DNA of 37,350 nt, taken from IMG/VR virus record IMGVR_UViG_3300032212_000076, positions 1 through 37,350 of that record; one strand, given 5' to 3'. Position numbers and translations under genes: made by a program. This DNA is from a virus (Duplodnaviria > Caudoviricetes). Position 1 is the first letter of the stretch, and every line of letters begins with the position of its first letter. Of the stretch, positions 3,075 to 23,561 are shown piece by piece. The notes beneath the pieces were generated by a model, which had not been told where the DNA came from, did not search any database, and was given only the letters and a program-made list of their open reading frames with translations.

Positions 3075-3486
3075 CCGCCCCCGCGTCGACCAACGCCGAG
3101 ACGTCGGGTAGGTCGCCATCGGGGTCTGGCTCTTCGACGCATTCTTCAGGGTCGAGCCACAAGATCATATCCTTGCACCAAGCCATGTCGACAGGGGCAC
3201 CGACGAAGCCGCTGTTCGGACCCAAGCCAAACAGAAGGCCATAGCCAACGGTGATCTTGCTCTTGTCCAGTCCCCGGATCTTAAATCCTGGCACGTCGTC
3301 GGCAAGGTACTGGGCGGCGGCGACCATCAGCGGCTTGCCGTCAATATCGAGAAGGTGCGCATGAGCAATCTGCTCTGAAGCGACTTCCTTCGCGATCCGT
3401 TGCTGGTAATGGCGCTTTTGGTCAGGCCACTTGCGCTGAAGGACCGTGCGGCGGATTGGGTCGACGCGGAATACGATGTAGCTCAT
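3058..3486 (-). CDS. hypothetical protein
   Basis: 142-aa ORF coupled by overlaps to the primase and the methylase; no motif recognised. Confidence 0.7.
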   Translation of the reverse strand: MSYIVFRVDPIRRTVLQRKWPDQKRHYQQRIAKEVASEQIAHAHLLDIDGKPLMVAAAQYLADDVPGFKIRGLDKSKITVGYGLLFGLGPNSGFVGAPVDMAWCKDMILWLDPEECVEEPDPDGDLPDVSALVDAGADDGSA

Positions 3487-5099
3487 TTGCGTGGTTTCTC
3501 CATTAGAAAGGCTCGCAGCATATCTTCCAATTGCTGGTCGCTGTTGATGTTGAGTTTGAGGGTGACGCTTTGCCGAAGCGCCATGAGTTGGCCTTCGAAG
3601 CCTTGACGCTCCAAAGCCGGGACCAAACCGGACGGTTCTTCAGCGCCATCGCATACAATGTCGATCACGCCTTCGAAAAGCTCGGTGCCGAACTGGCCGC
3701 CTTGAGGGAAAAGGCGCACGACCGAATCGAAATGTCGAAAGAGGACGGCAGGACGGTCAATCATTGCAACCAAGAACGCCACACGCATGGCATCGGCTGG
3801 TGATTGGCGCGGTGCGGATGGTTGGCTGTTGTAATTGCCGCGAAAATCGTCGGTTCTGCCAAGGAGAGTGGCGATTTCTTGACCGTAAGCGGCCTTTACG
3901 TCGCCATTTTTGATCGATTTGACCAATTCCCTCGCTTCAGAGCGCAATTTGGCACGGGAATCGGGGTTTCTCGGGTCGTTCTTTTCCACCAGGTCGTCCC
4001 ACAAGACCTTCAGGAGCGAAACAGCGCCGTCAATGGCCGCATTGATACCGTCTGCACCGCTTTCGCGCGCAATATCGTCTGGATCGGCCCCATTTGCGGG
4101 AAAAACGAACGAAAGTGACTTGCCCGGCTGCAAAAGCGGCAAAGCGCGCTCGGCAGCGCGTACGGCAGCCTTTTTGCCTGCGTTGTCACCATCCAGCATG
4201 AAAATTGGCTTATCTGCTATCTGCCACATGCCACGAAGTTGATATTCGGTCACTGCGGTGCCGTTTGGCGCCACCACCTCGTGAATTCCAACCATATCGA
4301 GGCCAATGACATCCATATAGCCCTCAACGACGATCAGGCGCCCTGCTTTGCGCGCTTCCGGCGCTGCACGGTGATGGTTGAACAGTGTGCGGCCCTTGTC
4401 GAACGCTGGGCTGTCGGCAGAGTTGAGATATTTAGGCTCACCCTTGCCAAGAACGCGTCCACCGAAGCCTATGACGTGGCCACGGGCGTCATGGATCGGG
4501 ATCATCACGCGACGCCGGAAGAAGTCGTAATTGCCGTCGTCGCCCTCTTTGACCAAGCCAAGTGTCGACAGAAGCTTCGTCTCTGCGCTCCATTTGCGCT
4601 CAAGGACTGAACCTTGGCCCTTTGCAACGGGCGGCGCCCATCCAATCCTGAATTTGGTCACAGTGTCGGCGGTCATCCCGCGAGAGGCCAGATAGTTCTT
4701 GGCTTCGTCGTTGCCCATCAGGTTTTCGTAGAAGTGTTCGGCGACAGCTTCGTTGACGCCAGCCAGCCGATCGCGGAACTGGGCGCGTTTGATGTCTTGT
4801 GGATCTTGAGCGGGTACTTCCAATCCCGCGATCTCTGCCAGCGCCTTGATGGCGTCCATGAAAGACATGTTCTCGTGGTCGACCATCCAACTGATGACAT
4901 CGCCATGCGCGCCGCATCCGAAGCAATGGTAGAACTGCTTGCCATCGTTGACGTAGAAGCTCGGCGTCTTCTCGTCATGGAACGGGCAGCAGCCCTTCCA
5001 CTCTCGCCCGCTCTGCTTGATCTTATGCGTTCGCTGGACGAGCGACGACATGCTGACGCGGGTGCGCAACTCGTCCATAAACTGGCGGGGGATGGTCAC
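3483..5099 (-). CDS. dnaG: DnaG-type DNA primase
   Basis: CHC2 zinc finger (CPFHDEKTPSF...CFGC), FRRRVMIPI, GFGGR, PKYLNS, Toprim VEGYMD...DGD, DPDD. Likely GTG start at 5099 overlapping the upstream TGA. Confidence 0.96.
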   Translation of the reverse strand: MTIPRQFMDELRTRVSMSSLVQRTHKIKQSGREWKGCCPFHDEKTPSFYVNDGKQFYHCFGCGAHGDVISWMVDHENMSFMDAIKALAEIAGLEVPAQDPQDIKRAQFRDRLAGVNEAVAEHFYENLMGNDEAKNYLASRGMTADTVTKFRIGWAPPVAKGQGSVLERKWSAETKLLSTLGLVKEGDDGNYDFFRRRVMIPIHDARGHVIGFGGRVLGKGEPKYLNSADSPAFDKGRTLFNHHRAAPEARKAGRLIVVEGYMDVIGLDMVGIHEVVAPNGTAVTEYQLRGMWQIADKPIFMLDGDNAGKKAAVRAAERALPLLQPGKSLSFVFPANGADPDDIARESGADGINAAIDGAVSLLKVLWDDLVEKNDPRNPDSRAKLRSEARELVKSIKNGDVKAAYGQEIATLLGRTDDFRGNYNSQPSAPRQSPADAMRVAFLVAMIDRPAVLFRHFDSVVRLFPQGGQFGTELFEGVIDIVCDGAEEPSGLVPALERQGFEGQLMALRQSVTLKLNINSDQQLEDMLRAFLMEKPRK

Positions 5100-5293
5100 T
5101 GAATTTCCTTCCAATCGATATACGGGAACACACGGTCGACGGCTGGCATCCCGTGTGATCTATCGCCACAGGTGTGGACGAACATGGGAGGATTCGTCGG
5201 CCGTTGCTCTCCGGTGAAGTGCAGGGCTGCTCCGCAAACGGCACAAAGAAGGTCCACGCGCACTGGCATGACTGGTGTTTCTCTGCATTTCAT
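5096..5293 (-). CDS. small Zn-ribbon-like hypothetical protein
   Basis: MKCRETP...CAVC...HTC; ATGA/GTGA overlaps at both ends. Confidence 0.6.
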   Translation of the reverse strand: MKCRETPVMPVRVDLLCAVCGAALHFTGEQRPTNPPMFVHTCGDRSHGMPAVDRVFPYIDWKEIQ

Positions 5294-9535: not shown

Positions 9536-9934
9536 CTAGGGTAGCAGTGCAGTCATTGGATCGATCTTTGATCCAAACTCACCAAAGGGGTCGTTATCGT
9601 CGTAATCCGCCGCCCATTCGGAGCGCTCAAGCATGTAGCTCCACTTCTGGCGGCTGATTGGGTTTTTCTGAACCGTCGGCCAGACGTCGGACAATTGCTC
9701 GATCCGAATGCCGGCGAACTCAAGAGGCTCATAATCTAGGTTGGTGAAGCCGACCTGGACCTGCCAGCGCGGCGAACGATCCATCGGTTCGAATGTCTCT
9801 GGATCGCGCGGGCGACCGTACCAAATCCGGACAGGAATGTTGACGCGGCCGGAACGCGATAGATCGATCTCGTAATAGCCCTCGACCAAAGCGTCGGTGC
9901 CTTCGCGATCATGGTTATAGGGATCAGGTATCAA
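9536..9934 (-). CDS. hypothetical protein, first gene of the leftward operon
   Basis: TTG start with GAGAG SD; PVRIWYG.P.DP.T.E.MDRSPRWQ; no HTH or S24 peptidase features. Confidence 0.7.
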   Translation of the reverse strand: MIPDPYNHDREGTDALVEGYYEIDLSRSGRVNIPVRIWYGRPRDPETFEPMDRSPRWQVQVGFTNLDYEPLEFAGIRIEQLSDVWPTVQKNPISRQKWSYMLERSEWAADYDDNDPFGEFGSKIDPMTALLP

Positions 9935-9943
9935 TGCCGTCTC

Positions 9944-10053
9944 TCAAAAACTAAAGAAGCGGACACCCCCATCGCACGGGGCGGGGGTAGCACAGACGAG
10001 CTTTGAAAGGTGCCCGCTTCAACCGGTGGTCGTATGCGACGAATCCTCATCGC
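9944..10053 (-). ncRNA. putative structured leader/small RNA (~110 nt) ending in a terminator-like stem
   Basis: Begins 7 nt below a predicted -10. 5' hairpin GCGAUGA-GGAU-UCGUCGC (10053-10036). 12-bp stem GAAGCGGGCACC/GGUGUCCGCUUC (10020-10009 with 9967-9956), then UUUAGUUUUU. Each stem has a G-U pair that works only on the minus strand. Confidence 0.6.
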
Positions 10054-10059
10054 CAGTCC

Positions 10060-10088
10060 GATATGACAAGCTTAAAGCTGGTGCGCAA
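10060..10088 (-). promoter_or_regulatory. predicted leftward sigma70 promoter
   Basis: TTGCGC (10088-10083), 17-nt spacer, CATATC (10065-10060); alphaproteobacterial style. Confidence 0.55.
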
Positions 10089-10117
10089 CCTATTTCTGTA
10101 AAAAGTGGATATAATTA

Positions 10118-10147
10118 TTGACCGTGCCCTAAAACTACGCCTAAGTG
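10118..10147 (+). promoter_or_regulatory. predicted rightward sigma70 promoter
   Basis: TTGACC (10118-10123), 17-nt spacer, CTAAGT; back to back with the leftward -35 across an AT-rich spacer. Confidence 0.5.
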
Positions 10148-10193
10148 TCCAGCAAGACCACCGGCGTCCGCGCCTCAAAAGTAGAAAGTGGAC

Positions 10194-10436
10194 ATGAAAA
10201 CACAGACCGAACATGTGCTGTCGCGCTTCGAGTCGATCGAAGACGCTGCCCAGTCGACCGGGTTTCCGGAGCAAACTTGGTATAATTGGAAGCGTGCAGG
10301 GAGCATCCCGCACAAACACCATCTCTCAATAATCATCAAAGCGCGATCAGCCAGCAAGGAAATCCACCCTGCCGACTTCTATGCGCATTTGGTGGATCAG
10401 CTTTTGGCGCATGTTGCGCCAGAACCAGCCGAGTAA
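10194..10436 (+). CDS. Cro-like helix-turn-helix regulator
   Basis: VLSRF..IEDAAQSTGFPEQTWYNWKRAGSIP is a Cro-type HTH; first gene of the rightward operon. Confidence 0.8.
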   Translation: MKTQTEHVLSRFESIEDAAQSTGFPEQTWYNWKRAGSIPHKHHLSIIIKARSASKEIHPADFYAHLVDQLLAHVAPEPAE

Positions 10437-12058: not shown

Positions 12059-12867
12059 GCAAATCACCCAAGGCTGACAATCTCCCCCTCCCCCCACTGC
12101 CAGACAAAAAATTCGACATCATCTCTCTGGACCCGCCGTGGCACTTTCGTAGCCGTGCGCCTGTCCAGAACCCGGAAAGTGAGCGTTCGCCGCAAAAGCA
12201 CTATCCGACAATGGATCTCGAGCATATCGCGAAGCTCCCGATCAAAGACATCGCGTCAAAGGACGCCTATGTGTTTCTTTGGATCACCGGGCCGCTGATG
12301 GTCGAGGGCGTCCACAAGTCGCTATTCAAGCGGTGGGGCGTTCGCCCTGTGTCGACAGCCTTCGTTTGGGTGAAGACCAAGAAGACGTTCGACATGACAA
12401 CGCTGGGGGACACCCCGCTGTTTGCGGAAGACCTGCATTTCGGCATGGGTTACACCACGCGCCAGAATGCCGAGTTCGTGATGTTGGGGCGCATCGGTTC
12501 GCCATCGGGCATCCGTAAGGACATCCGCCAGATGATCTTGGCGCCAGTCTCGGAACACAGCCGCAAGCCTGATGAGTATTACCGCCGTGTGGAGCATTTT
12601 GCCCGCGGTGAACGCATCGACATGTTCGCAGGACGCGAGCGCGAAGGCTGGACGTCGTGGGGTTGGTCCCATCGCGAAGAAGAGCGCACCGAAGTCGCGC
12701 ACCCCGTCCGCAAGGGCGTGCATGGAAAATGCCTGCGCTGCGAGGCCACTGGTCCGATCAACAAGCAAGGTGCCTGCGAGGCTTGTGGCCCTATTGGTTG
12801 CCCCGAAACGTCAAGGGATCCCGCAATCAAATGTGACCACTGCACATGCTGGAAGAATGACGCATGA
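12055..12867 (+). CDS. MT-A70-family adenine methyltransferase with a Cys-rich C-terminus
   Basis: DPPW, HYPTM, FLW.T, FVWVK, GMGYTTR.NAE, EHSRKP, DMFA.R..GW..WG. Confidence 0.92.
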   Translation: MSKSPKADNLPLPPLPDKKFDIISLDPPWHFRSRAPVQNPESERSPQKHYPTMDLEHIAKLPIKDIASKDAYVFLWITGPLMVEGVHKSLFKRWGVRPVSTAFVWVKTKKTFDMTTLGDTPLFAEDLHFGMGYTTRQNAEFVMLGRIGSPSGIRKDIRQMILAPVSEHSRKPDEYYRRVEHFARGERIDMFAGREREGWTSWGWSHREEERTEVAHPVRKGVHGKCLRCEATGPINKQGACEACGPIGCPETSRDPAIKCDHCTCWKNDA

Positions 12868-14321
12868 CGGATGGTGATCGCCTCATAAACATAACAGCGG
12901 AAGGCGCCCTGCTTGGCGCCATGCTGCTGAAGAACGATCTGGTCCAAGAGCTTGCCGACAGGGTTTCTACCGAAGACTTTGCCGATCCGCTTCATGGTCG
13001 AATTATGAACGTGTTGTTGCGCTTCGCTGGTGCTGGTAAACCCGCCACCGCGCTGACAATCCGGTCGGTGTTCAAACAGGACAGTGAGGCTCAATATGGT
13101 GAATATCTCGACACGCTCGTTGAGGCACCCGCTGCTGCACTCGCAGCGCCGTCTCTTGCAGACCAAATCGCCGACCTTAGTGCGCGAAGAAAAGCCCGCG
13201 AGGCGATGCGGGAAGGCGTTGTCTCTCTCGAGGAAGAGCAAGATCGAGCGGTAGATGACATCTGCGGCTCGGTTGAAAGTGTCGGTCACGCCGCCGCGAG
13301 TAGGACTCGAGTCGACATCGCCTATGACGCTGGTGATTACGCCGGCATGGTGCTTGAGCGCTATAAGCGCATCAATGATGACCCTAACGCGGCTGGCTTA
13401 AAGAACGCGCTCGTCGAAGAATTCGACATAGGCATGGGCTTGTTCGAACGCGGGACTTACAACATTCTCGCAGGGCGGCCCGGCATGGGAAAATCATCGG
13501 CAGCATCATCGATCGCGCTGGGGTACGCCATCAATGGGCATCCCACGCTTTTCCTGAACCACGAGATGAGCGCAGAACAATGCGCAATTCGGAGCATGGC
13601 CGACACCGCGTCTGCCATGGGTTACGAGATGACCACGACAGCAATGCGCAAAGGCCAGTTGTCGCGTGAAGACTTAGAAAACTTCGCCAAGGTTGAAGCC
13701 CGCGCTGGGCTGCTACCTATTCGCTTCATCAACCCGGGCAGGTGTGATGTGAAGCGCGTTCGATCCCTCATCGCGCAGCAATGCGCTATGTGGAAGGCCA
13801 GAGGCTCTGAATTGCAGGTTGTCGTCGTTGACTATCTCGGCTTGCTCAAAGCGAGCTACCCTGATGGGCGTGAGATTGTTCGTGGATATGAGCGGATGCA
13901 GCACGTCAGTCAGGCAGTGAAAGACATCGCTGCTGATTACAACGTCGCCCTCATTGCTCTGGCGCAGCTTTCCCGCGCCGTCGAGCAGCGCCCTAACAAG
14001 CGACCAATTCTGTCCGACCTGAAGGAAAGTGGCGATCTCGAGCAAGACGCCGATTCGGTCTGCATGCTCTACCGCGAGGAATACTATCTCGAGCAAGAGA
14101 AGCCCAAGCAGGGCGAGAAGGGCAAAGACGGCACCAATTTGTATGAAGAATGGGAGAACGAGATGCACGCATCGCGCAACAAACTCGACCTGATCTTTGC
14201 CAAATGCCGACACAACCGCACGTCGACACAGACGGCTAAATTCTATCCGGAGATCTCTTCGGTACGATCGGGTGAATTCAACAAATATGACATCGGCCAA
14301 GAAGAGCCGTTGCTAGTGTAG
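12864..14321 (+). CDS. dnaB: DnaB-family replicative helicase
   Basis: AE.ALLGA.L, Walker A AGRPGMGKS, EMS, Walker B VVVDYL, AQLSR.VEQR..KRP.LSDLKESGDLEQDAD. Confidence 0.96.
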   Translation: MTDGDRLINITAEGALLGAMLLKNDLVQELADRVSTEDFADPLHGRIMNVLLRFAGAGKPATALTIRSVFKQDSEAQYGEYLDTLVEAPAAALAAPSLADQIADLSARRKAREAMREGVVSLEEEQDRAVDDICGSVESVGHAAASRTRVDIAYDAGDYAGMVLERYKRINDDPNAAGLKNALVEEFDIGMGLFERGTYNILAGRPGMGKSSAASSIALGYAINGHPTLFLNHEMSAEQCAIRSMADTASAMGYEMTTTAMRKGQLSREDLENFAKVEARAGLLPIRFINPGRCDVKRVRSLIAQQCAMWKARGSELQVVVVDYLGLLKASYPDGREIVRGYERMQHVSQAVKDIAADYNVALIALAQLSRAVEQRPNKRPILSDLKESGDLEQDADSVCMLYREEYYLEQEKPKQGEKGKDGTNLYEEWENEMHASRNKLDLIFAKCRHNRTSTQTAKFYPEISSVRSGEFNKYDIGQEEPLLV

Positions 14322-14330
14322 GAGGGTAAG

Positions 14331-15335
14331 ATGGCGTTTGAAGTCATGGCTCTCATCTCATGCCGCCAGGTTAAGGTCTGGAACGAGATGGTGAAGCCAA
14401 TTCAAAAGGAACATGAAGGTTCGGGCCGCAACCTCAAGTGGGTTATGATGGCGCTGGCTGATTATTCCAACAAGGAAGGGTATTGCTACCCATCTGTTCG
14501 GTCCATTGAGCAGTTCACGGGATTGTCAACGCGGTCTGTCCAGCGTGCATTGAAGCAGGCGGACAGGATTGGCCTCATCAGGATCCGTCGGCGCATGGAT
14601 TCGAGCAGTGAATACCTGATTGATCTGGAACGGCTGCCCTTCATCTCGACCAAGAGAAACCCAAAGCAGCCCGGCCCCCACCAACAATTCTTTGAGGACG
14701 TCGACATGTTCGACATCCCACCAATCGATGTCACTGATGTCGATGAAGACGTGGCTGGCACCGGTGTCACGGTGGCGCCTGACCCATGCCAGACTGGCAC
14801 CACCCCGGTGTCAGGGAGTCATCCACCCCCCGCCACAGTGGCACCCAAACCTATTAGTGAACCAGTCATTGAACCAGTGAGTGAACCGGTCAGCGCCGAA
14901 ACGGCGCGCGCCAACGGCTGGGGGCTAGGTCGTTTCATTGAAGTCAACTGGCAGCAGCTTAAACAGGAACACCCGCACATTGCAGGCATCCGAAAGCTTA
15001 CCGACACGATGTTGGATAACGCTCGCACTCGAGCAAAGCAGCACATGAATGAAGGAGAGGACGCTATCGATGTTTGGGCAGCCGTCTTCGACAACATCCG
15101 AAACTCTCCGTTTTTGCTCGGCAAAATTGCACCGGGCCAAGGCAGAACGAATCGCTTCAAGCTCGCGATGAGCAAGATCCTGAAGCCACACATCTTCGAA
15201 AGGACTATCAATGGGGAATACCTCGCCAGCGCAACAGACCGCTTTGATCCAGACACAGGAGAAGTCGTGGGGCCAGCCGCAACGGCAGCAAGTTCGACAG
15301 TCGATCGCATTCGACAGGCTGGTCAACGAAGCTGA
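14331..15335 (+). CDS. phage replication initiator (N-terminal winged HTH)
   Basis: MMALADYSNKEGYCYPS...TGLSTRSVQRAL; central Pro-rich linker that carries DNA repeats; GGAGG SD. Confidence 0.85.
   Translation: MAFEVMALISCRQVKVWNEMVKPIQKEHEGSGRNLKWVMMALADYSNKEGYCYPSVRSIEQFTGLSTRSVQRALKQADRIGLIRIRRRMDSSSEYLIDLERLPFISTKRNPKQPGPHQQFFEDVDMFDIPPIDVTDVDEDVAGTGVTVAPDPCQTGTTPVSGSHPPPATVAPKPISEPVIEPVSEPVSAETARANGWGLGRFIEVNWQQLKQEHPHIAGIRKLTDTMLDNARTRAKQHMNEGEDAIDVWAAVFDNIRNSPFLLGKIAPGQGRTNRFKLAMSKILKPHIFERTINGEYLASATDRFDPDTGEVVGPAATAASSTVDRIRQAGQRS
14763..14892. repeat. probable replication origin: four palindromic iterons at 22-bp spacing plus three 12-bp repeats
   Basis: Cores TGTCAcggTGGC (14765), TGCCAgacTGGC (14787), TGTCAgggAGTC (14809), CGCCAcagTGGC (14831); then TGAACC(A/G)GT three times at 12-bp period. 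Confidence 0.75.
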
Positions 15336-15729
15336 CGAAGACGCCATTCGATCATCTTTGCCGGAACGAGCGGTCCTTCAGCAAGCCTTGGACGGCTGGG
15401 CGCAGGAAGCCTCGCCGCTTGCTCAACAGCCCACAGCGCACATCGAGTCGTTCGTAATGCAGGACTTGGCGGGCTTTATGGCGTTGGCATGTTGCCGTAT
15501 GTCGCCAGAGGCTCGCAAAGAGTATTCCGACCAGGTTGTCTTGGAATTCGCCAATCTGCCATTTTCTCTGCTAACAGATGCCGTGGCGACCGCTCGCCAG
15601 TCTATCTCGTTTCCGGAGAAGCTTGTGCCGTTTGTCATCGAAATCATTGAAAAGCGACAGGCCAAACTCGCCGAAGAAGGTCGCGTTTTGAAAGAACTCA
15701 CGCGGATCGCTGATGGCCGACAAGACTGA
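15211..15729 (+). CDS. hypothetical protein downstream of the initiator (possible loader/accessory factor)
   Basis: AAGGA SD before ATG 15211; helical protein in the position of lambda P; start uncertain because of a 125-nt overlap. Confidence 0.6.
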   Translation: MGNTSPAQQTALIQTQEKSWGQPQRQQVRQSIAFDRLVNEADEDAIRSSLPERAVLQQALDGWAQEASPLAQQPTAHIESFVMQDLAGFMALACCRMSPEARKEYSDQVVLEFANLPFSLLTDAVATARQSISFPEKLVPFVIEIIEKRQAKLAEEGRVLKELTRIADGRQD

Positions 15730-22054: not shown

Positions 22055-22447
22055 ATGGCCGGCGTAATCAACACCCATACTTTCGGCAACCGTGGCCCCG
22101 GTCACTTCTGCATCGGCGTCAACGACCCGATCAAGTCGAATGAACACATCACGATTGCTGCTAACAGCGGCGATCTCGAAGCTGGTACTGTGCTTGGTGA
22201 AATCACCGCCACGCCCGGTACGTATGCCCCTCTCGATCCGGCTGACACCGTACCGGGGACCGCCGCCTTCGGCTGCATTCTGTATCAGGATGTTCCCGAT
22301 TCCACGTCGACGCAACGTGCAACTGGTGTTGTGCGCGATCAGCCGGTCAACGGCAACGCGCTCAAATACGAGAACGCGCTCAACCAGGCTCAACTCGATG
22401 CCATGGTTGCGGAGGCAGAAGCCGAACGAGTTATCGTCCGGTACTAA
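22055..22447 (+). CDS. head decoration protein (gpD-like)
   Basis: L.AGTVLG.ITA...Y...DP....G......IL; precedes the capsid gene. Confidence 0.88.
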   Translation: MAGVINTHTFGNRGPGHFCIGVNDPIKSNEHITIAANSGDLEAGTVLGEITATPGTYAPLDPADTVPGTAAFGCILYQDVPDSTSTQRATGVVRDQPVNGNALKYENALNQAQLDAMVAEAEAERVIVRY

Positions 22448-22496
22448 TCTTTAACCATCGCGCGGGGCGGGGGCCAAGCGCAAAGGGGAGTGACCC

Positions 22497-23561
22497 ATGG
22501 AACGTGTAATTGACATCTTCGGTAACGATGTCTTCAAGGTGACGAGCCTTCAGCGCCTTGTCGACAAAGTGCCTTTCGTCCCGCAGGCTTTGGGCCAGAT
22601 GCGGATTTTCCAGCCAAAGCCGATCGCCGATCGCGAAGTGCTGCTTTTCGAGAAGGATGGCGGATACCAGCTAATTCCTTCGCGTGAACTCGGCGCGCCC
22701 GATGCGCAACAGATCCGCCGTCAGGGCCGGGTCCGTGCGCTGTCCACCATCCCGCTGGGCAAGATGGACACGGTTCGCGCTGGTGAACTGCAATCGGTTG
22801 CCAGCATCGCGCTGCCCGAACGCATCCGCCTGCAAAATGCTCAAGACCTCACGGTCGAGCGCATGGCGCAGCTTCGCACCGACCTTGAGGCAACGAAGGA
22901 ATTCCATCGCCTCAACGCGCTGCAAGGCAAGCTCTATGATGCCGACGGCACTACGCTGCTTGTCGACTTCTTCACCGAATACGGGATTGCCGAACCGTCG
23001 GCGATCAACTTCGACTTCTCGGCGATTGCGAACAATCAGCTTGGCACCTTTGTCGAGCAGAACGTGCGCAATCCAATGCGTGACGTCCTGAAGGATGCTG
23101 GCCGTTGGGGTCCGCAGGTCAAGATCCACTGCTTGGTCGGCGACACCTTCTGGTATTCGCTCATCGCGCACAACGACATCGTTGCTCGCTGGCAGGCGCA
23201 GGAAACCGCACGGTATATCGCGCTCGCGCAGAACCCGCTTCTGCAAACGCCTACTTATTCGTCGGTCGAAGTCGGCAACGTCGTCTTCCATCACTACGAA
23301 GGCACCACCGCTGGCGACATCGACGTCGGCACCAACGACGCGATCTTCTTCCCGGTCGGCGCCAAGGACGTGTTCAACGTCTACTGGTCACCGGGCGAAA
23401 CGAACGCTGACGTCAATCAGAAGGGCCGGGCGGAATATCCGTACATCGTCCCTGACATGCGTCCAGCAATCGCTGACCACGTCGACATGCACCTGCGCAG
23501 CTACCCGCTGTATGCTTGCATCTTCCCGCAAGCACTGCTCAAAGGGCTGCGCACGGGCTAA
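22497..23561 (+). CDS. major capsid protein (lambda gpE family)
   Basis: DIF..D.F.V.SL, T.EFHRL.ALQGK..DADG.....DFF.EYG, FFPVGA..VF, SYPL..C..P..L. Confidence 0.95.
   Translation: MERVIDIFGNDVFKVTSLQRLVDKVPFVPQALGQMRIFQPKPIADREVLLFEKDGGYQLIPSRELGAPDAQQIRRQGRVRALSTIPLGKMDTVRAGELQSVASIALPERIRLQNAQDLTVERMAQLRTDLEATKEFHRLNALQGKLYDADGTTLLVDFFTEYGIAEPSAINFDFSAIANNQLGTFVEQNVRNPMRDVLKDAGRWGPQVKIHCLVGDTFWYSLIAHNDIVARWQAQETARYIALAQNPLLQTPTYSSVEVGNVVFHHYEGTTAGDIDVGTNDAIFFPVGAKDVFNVYWSPGETNADVNQKGRAEYPYIVPDMRPAIADHVDMHLRSYPLYACIFPQALLKGLRTG

Follow-up and report, generated by a model that had tools for sequence, protein, structure and literature searches.

A conserved early leader of a lambda-headed phage with a predicted trans-acting match to the 5' UTR of its own major capsid gene

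In an uncultured tailed phage with a lambda-type head, the leader of the leftward early operon contains a C-rich stretch complementary to the 5' untranslated region (UTR) of the major capsid gene, which is located 12.5 kb away in the opposite operon. The feature is real and conserved at the level of sequence: both sites occur in exactly three independent lineages, namely the window (the whole 37-kb stretch of DNA that was analysed), which is the discovery case, and two relatives, G001 and G002. We estimate a probability of about 0.75 that RNA from the leader base-pairs in trans with the 5' UTR of the capsid gene. That this pairing would serve as a brake on capsid output early in infection is more tentative, and we place it somewhat below even odds. 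The relevant features of the window are the following.

9536 to 9934, minus strand: first leftward gene, 132 aa, of no family, read through the leader
9944 to 10053, minus strand: structured leader RNA of about 110 nt, candidate regulator
9946 to 9955, minus strand: U-rich tract, terminator-like in the window, absent from G001 and G002
9956 to 9967, minus strand: main stem, 3' arm
9969 to 9987, minus strand: C-rich seed in the stem loop, with an invariant 10-nt core at 9977 to 9986
9989 to 9994, minus strand: second helix with 22477 to 22482, weakly conserved
10009 to 10020, minus strand: main stem, 5' arm, 12 of 12 positions paired, one as G·U
10025 to 10031, minus strand: linker with ACCACC, invariant in the window, G001, and G002
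10036 to 10053, minus strand: 5' hairpin of 7 bp at the predicted +1
10060 to 10088, minus strand: predicted leftward early promoter PL (-35 TTGCGC at 10088-10083, 17-nt spacer, -10 CATATC at 10065-10060)
10069 to 10079, no strand assigned: palindrome within the spacer of PL, candidate operator for a repressor
10188 to 10436, plus strand: Cro-like small HTH gene, first rightward gene (HTH_17, E=0.002, under the curated cut-off)
22055 to 22447, plus strand: head decoration protein D (PF02924, E=7e-17; phrog_49)
22455 to 22473, plus strand: G-rich target in the capsid 5' UTR (-42 to -24)
22460 to 22481, plus strand: predicted UTR hairpin with a GGGG loop, ending 3 nt before the Shine-Dalgarno (SD) sequence
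22485 to 22490, plus strand: SD of the capsid gene
22497 to 23561, plus strand: major capsid protein, lambda gpE type (PF03864, phrog_29)

The head genes include terminase, portal, protease, decoration protein D, and a gpE-type capsid protein. Two operons diverge at 9934/10188: the leftward one contains recombination and replication genes, and the rightward one begins with the Cro-like gene, RuvC, a methylase, DnaB, and an O-like initiator, and continues with the head and tail genes. From the Cro-like gene to the decoration gene there is no gap of at least 19 nt, the first such gap being the 49 nt on the 5' side of the capsid gene. A terminator scan of the rightward arm returned 21 sites, compared to 16.3 ± 4.0 in shuffles, and no Q-like gene was recognised. 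The Cro-like gene has weak matches at the equivalent place in relatives. The 132-aa first leftward gene adjoins the switch in most relatives and shows invariant Trp, Arg, and Pro motifs. Replication functions are seen in both arms, the left one encoding a second helicase besides a DnaG-type primase (3483-5114) and the right one DnaB and the O-like initiator (12864-15335); the window additionally encodes two DNA methylases, an HU-like gene, and an acyl-carrier-like gene. Between the O-like gene and the small terminase, an unnamed 172-aa gene of no family (15211-15729) has helicase loaders (lambda P/G39P) as its nearest named look-alikes (0.84-0.85), a weak likeness that serves as a lead only.

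The capsid proteins of the relatives are 40-64% identical to that of the window (61-63% for G001 and G002), and the best match among cultured phages is 33.5%. In a terminase tree, the window, G001, G002, and L020 form one branch (support 97/96). Two relatives sit in Sphingomonadaceae bins, which makes an alphaproteobacterial host likely. Near-identical copies of G002 (L001, L002, L019, L024, L066, and L068) and duplicates of G001 and G004 were left out of the counts. An exact 19-mer scan of viral contigs gave no match and a single-protein locus search gave no locus; one contig of run X2 spans 22249-22495 with 15 differences, and no X2 contig covers the leader. A profile of the first leftward gene matched 4 of 401 and 5 of 401 genomes in GTDB samples, and the one profile-matched GTDB genome that was read (G028) has no leader.

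The first-pass annotation reported that the stretches at 9969-9987 and 22455-22473 are identical at 18 of 19 positions, and our recomputation agrees: both are intergenic and lie in the same DNA orientation. The complementarity claimed for the two RNAs is also borne out, as all 19 columns pair, one of them as G·U. An 18/19 match alone is not rare, because at least one 19-mer pair with no more than one mismatch was found in 21 of 25 Markov-4 simulated genomes and the window contains a second such pair (7502/20816, coding). One could accordingly regard the match as chance or a neutral relic, two G-rich stretches being kept for their own hairpins, and local structure does occur at both sites. Nevertheless, in a control restricted to intergenic sequence (8 gaps of at least 19 nt, 705 nt in total), the best matches of 500 shuffles were 13-16/19 and none exceeded 16/19, and the flanks match within a phage whereas they differ between phages. 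The invariant 10-nt core has two copies in the window versus 0.05 expected. We consider the chance or relic reading largely refuted and highly improbable.

The alignment of relatives that had been suggested as a check shows that both sites are co-conserved in G001 and G002, with changes on both sides. The second copy lies 11.8-11.9 kb upstream in these phages, flanked, like that of the window, by the first leftward gene and the Cro-like gene. Since four-fold degenerate sites among the three phages are only 0.39-0.65 identical, both sites are under selection. Across the 19 columns, which were fixed from the window and compared in the window, G001, and G002, we observe 51 identical positions, five G·U in the predicted direction, none in the reversed direction, and one mismatch. 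Two-sided changes that keep the pair are found in columns -7 and -5 (window versus both relatives), -6 (window versus G002), and +10 (G001), and these four columns correspond to at least two separate events on the terminase tree. For the leaders of the window and G002, the best-pairing UTR is that of the same phage (19 columns versus 15-17 and 16-17), and the G001 leader pairs over 19 columns with the G002 UTR versus 18 with its own.

Covariation by itself cannot tell RNA pairing apart from a DNA site that both places have in common. The repeat might indeed be bound as double-stranded DNA by a single protein of the phage or its host, its copies having changed in step with the protein or by copying between the sites, and a direct repeat with an invariant 10-bp core is what such a site could look like. 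We regard this explanation as unlikely: five of the six differences are G·U in the direction predicted for RNA with none reversed, one copy is inside the loop of a covarying RNA stem, and the repeat is non-palindromic, while a separate palindrome is already present in the PL spacer. That the two copies form a common nut-type site, recognised in RNA by a protein, appears excluded, as they are on opposite transcribed senses. RNA is favoured by the direction of the G·U pairs and by a seed that sits in a covarying loop. These points rest on five changes, however, whose bias has a p of about 0.03 when transitions alone are counted and could stem from the folding of the individual RNAs.

The leader would be transcribed from PL, whose layout (TTG-N3, 17 nt, (C/G)ATA(C/T)) is found at the equivalent place in all ten tabulated phages. 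An E. coli-type promoter scan did not pick up PL, and -7T is described as absent from many alphaproteobacterial promoters (PMC8407463). We infer that PL functions as a promoter, with a start at about 10053. The palindrome in its spacer has the form RGCTTWAAGCY, is similar in G001 and G002 (the spacers compared in relatives being those of L093 and L091), and is a candidate operator for the Cro-like protein. A candidate rightward promoter, TTGACC-17-CTAAGT, was read by eye at 10118-10146 on the plus strand. Just 3' of it, at about 10156-10164, there is an inverted copy of the leader's GACCACCGG, which is not conserved as such in G001 and G002.

The anatomy of the leader is as the annotation described it, with a 12-bp stem (10020-10009 with 9967-9956), a 41-nt loop, and a 7-bp hairpin at the 5' end (10053-10036). 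The 5' hairpin, the invariant ACCACC, and the long stem with the C-rich seed in its loop are common to the window, G001, and G002, and a 5' hairpin differing in sequence is present in G001, G002, G004, and G022. The minus strand of the window leader has a folding z of -2.43 versus -1.00 for the plus strand, and in each of the five leaders folding is better on the leftward strand than on the complementary one. In a small alignment of three rows, from which the structure itself was derived, five pairs of the leader fold, including three in helix 2, show two-sided changes; of 500 shuffles, one attained this number, and slid controls gave 0-1. We observe no conserved site complementary to ACCACC in these three phages that would make it a second seed.

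A covariance model (R1) gives one strong match in each of the window, G001, and G002, the three sequences it was built from, and no match in the leaders of G004 and G022. These two phages of a sister branch have a leader of equivalent layout and other letters, whose kinship therefore rests on position and shape. The first SD after the -10 box lies at 101-115 nt in the window, G002, and G022, compared to 17-22 nt in five leaderless relatives (the script match of G001 fell inside the stem, and none was found for G004). Rfam families, including c4 and riboswitches, gave no hit at gathering score in the window and none at E up to 10 in 9850-10200. A leader-peptide attenuator was rejected, as the upstream ORFs of the window and G002 translate the seed in different frames and the G001 leader has no AUG. 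The frame of the window, 39 codons from an AUG at leader +4 (10050-9931, minus strand), ends on the start of the first gene, probably by chance, and that of G002 has 32 codons in another frame. A pattern scan with the leader returned five matches, of which one (L128) was dismissed as chance and the remaining four were already-known loci.

The annotation also placed a U tract behind the stem. It is indeed present in the window (9955-9946), but it is short in G004 and missing from G001 and G002, so the tract stands whereas an intrinsic terminator as a general feature does not. A terminated RNA is thus not general, and for G001 and G002 either processing behind the stem or action within the long message has to be assumed.

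On the capsid side, G001, G002, and L020 all retain the G-rich core in their capsid gap. It is absent from the capsid gap of the leaderless relatives in which this gap was read (G005-G009) and from the capsid 5' gap of G004. Leaderless relatives also carry a capsid UTR hairpin. After opening costs, the capsid UTR ranks first among 2109 tiles as a partner of the leader in the window and first among 1812 tiles in G002; in G001, it is tenth among the 900 best by raw energy of 3697 tiles. In G004 (L004, G004:C1 about 37388, minus strand), a GGGGCGGGGGC hairpin comes right after the capsid stop and is followed by two further hairpins. Judged by raw duplex energy, this site is the top off-self match of the capsid-sense strand, but after opening costs it falls to rank 263 and was rejected as a target, which leaves the G004 leader with no accessible capsid target. 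An 11-bp match seen by eye in the capsid UTR of G009 is outside the top 6 windows and was rejected, and a scan with the UTR pattern gave 16 loci, 12 unrelated and 4 already known. On a separate branch, the capsid gaps of L012, L014, and L015 have a self-closed hairpin, GGGAGG-GTT-CCTCC, on the 5' side of the capsid SD, and G007 and G008, of the same branch, have no leader.

According to the annotation, pairing continues up to the SD. The hexamers at 9989-9994 and 22477-22482 and the SD at 22485-22490 are as described in the window, but reaching the SD is not conserved, the second helix having about 6 pairs in the window, 5 in G001, and 3 in G002. The conserved duplex ends 24-28 nt on the 5' side of the AUG in the three phages, which is outside the usual ribosome footprint. 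Covering of the SD is for this reason probably not the mode of action. The original proposal that an early RNA controls the capsid gene is thus partly supported, by the co-conservation and the two-sided changes in G001 and G002, but not in its terminator as a general feature and its SD-reaching pairing.

We hypothesize that host sigma-70 would start transcription at about 10053 and that the 5' hairpin and the main stem would yield a stable RNA of about 100-110 nt, whose 3' end would arise by termination in the window and by processing, or as part of a longer message, in G001 and G002. The C-rich loop is predicted to meet the G-rich loop of the UTR hairpin, zip to 19-22 bp, and open this hairpin. 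The RNA might then act through an RNase III-type cut between the decoration and capsid genes, or through the loss of a protective or loading element, and the brake would lift once the Cro-like protein shuts PL and the capsid message outnumbers the RNA. A brake is favoured because the source is an early promoter and the head genes seem continuous with the early genes. Leaderless relatives keep the capsid UTR hairpin, which suggests that it benefits the message and that its opening would be harmful, and this too favours a brake. Furthermore, a GC-rich duplex of 19-22 bp suits RNase III, as with OOP, which is described as acting through RNase III decay of the cII mRNA (PMC12197685).

Activation is a real rival, because activating RNAs are described as normally pairing upstream of the site bound by the ribosome, where the duplex is located (PMC7534054). 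The leader RNA would then unlock the SD-abutting UTR hairpin or shield a processed capsid message, and capsid would be made after the RNA has built up. Blocking the seed makes a wider footprint cheaper to open in 12 of 16 windows, and for the window phage the cost drops by about 7 kcal/mol in three of four. Nevertheless, this fall is partly mechanical, since any blocked stretch removes structure, and the opening cost of the SD-AUG region shifts between -2.2 and +2.7 kcal/mol in no consistent direction. This lack of trend also led us to reject a structural switch in which a freed arm closes the SD. Moreover, the leaderless relatives, which also have the capsid UTR hairpin, presumably make capsid, and an early promoter would be an odd source for a late activator. 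We thus judge activation unlikely, if worth keeping in mind beside the preferred brake.

Co-folding with the capsid UTR is predicted to break the main stem of the leader in the window, G001, and G002, which could also mean that regulation runs in the reverse direction, the late capsid message unzipping the leader stem and altering termination, translation, or stability of the leftward operon. The 3' arm of the stem adjoins the SD of the first gene and, there being no terminator tract in G001 and G002, the leader may stay within the early message. However, the first leftward gene varies between phages while the capsid site is constant, and the leader has the anatomy of a stand-alone RNA, with a 5' hairpin at +1 and a seed in a loop. 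Such feedback seems quite improbable to us.

The absence of a visible CI, as claimed from the window, is matched in the complete relatives G001 and G004, in which neither an integrase nor a CI-type protease domain was found. The same applies to all four of the complete genomes with a lambda-like divergent layout (G001, G004, G007, and G008), and no tyrosine or serine integrase was detected in any of the five complete relatives. A weak CI-like match (S24 + HTH_3) occurs only in the provirus G005, which is leaderless. The leader does not simply substitute for CI, since G007 and G008 have neither.

The phage RNAs OOP, sar, and aQ are transcribed from the strand opposite to their target. A cis-encoded antisense RNA of this type is rejected here, as the leader (9944-10053) lies apart from the locus of its candidate target (22455-22473). 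The c4 RNAs of P1/P7 and the CI RNA of P4 have seeds in loops, act in trans on partly complementary phage sites, and control antirepressor or early-operon expression for immunity. The leader resembles them in its loop seed and predicted trans action, even if it matches no Rfam family. It would work like a trans-acting phage antisense RNA, complementarity and covariation being found and the transcript and its effect predicted. As presented in the 2025 review PMC12197685, lambda OOP, P22 sar, and lambda aQ are phage RNAs that pair with a phage message, as proposed for the leader, but their targets are the regulators cII, ant, and Q, whereas the candidate target of the leader is a major capsid UTR 12.5 kb away. 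IsrK of the prophage Gifsy-1 is described as a leader with two roles, being the 5' end of a message and also a short RNA with a trans effect on a phage transcript, although it activates its own read-through transcript, while the proposed partner here is a late gene of the opposite operon (PMC4825925). The satellite PLE makes SviR, an RNA against a capsid-region gene; in the account given, however, SviR is a parasite's RNA directed at the helper phage, and its target is not the major capsid gene, compared to the self-regulation proposed here (10.1101/2022.04.08.487710). CisR of Vibrio cholerae is a base-pairing RNA that represses the phage major coat message cep, and it is reported to be host-encoded, 3' UTR-derived, Hfq-dependent, and RBS-pairing, unlike the phage leader (PMC13250501). 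In the literature searched, which left most subscription papers outside its scope, we found no case of a phage RNA directed against the major capsid UTR of the same phage, and the word "capsid" does not appear in the main text of the 2025 review, a supplementary table of 38 uncharacterised RNAs aside (PMC12197685).

The described phage base-pairing RNAs target lysis-lysogeny regulators, host genes, or a rival element. An early RNA acting on the phage's own capsid message would, if true, connect the two divergent operons directly through RNA and allow a single gene to be timed within an early-late transcript that seems continuous, and the natural variants among the relatives are ready-made compensatory pairs. 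A bolder and rather doubtful reading is that, in a clade of lambda-headed phages with no CI, integrase, or Q-like gene found, an RNA timer replaces protein early-to-late control of the most abundant protein. The leader and the capsid UTR would kiss loop-to-loop and destroy or gate each other, so that capsid would be made once the late message exceeds the early leader.
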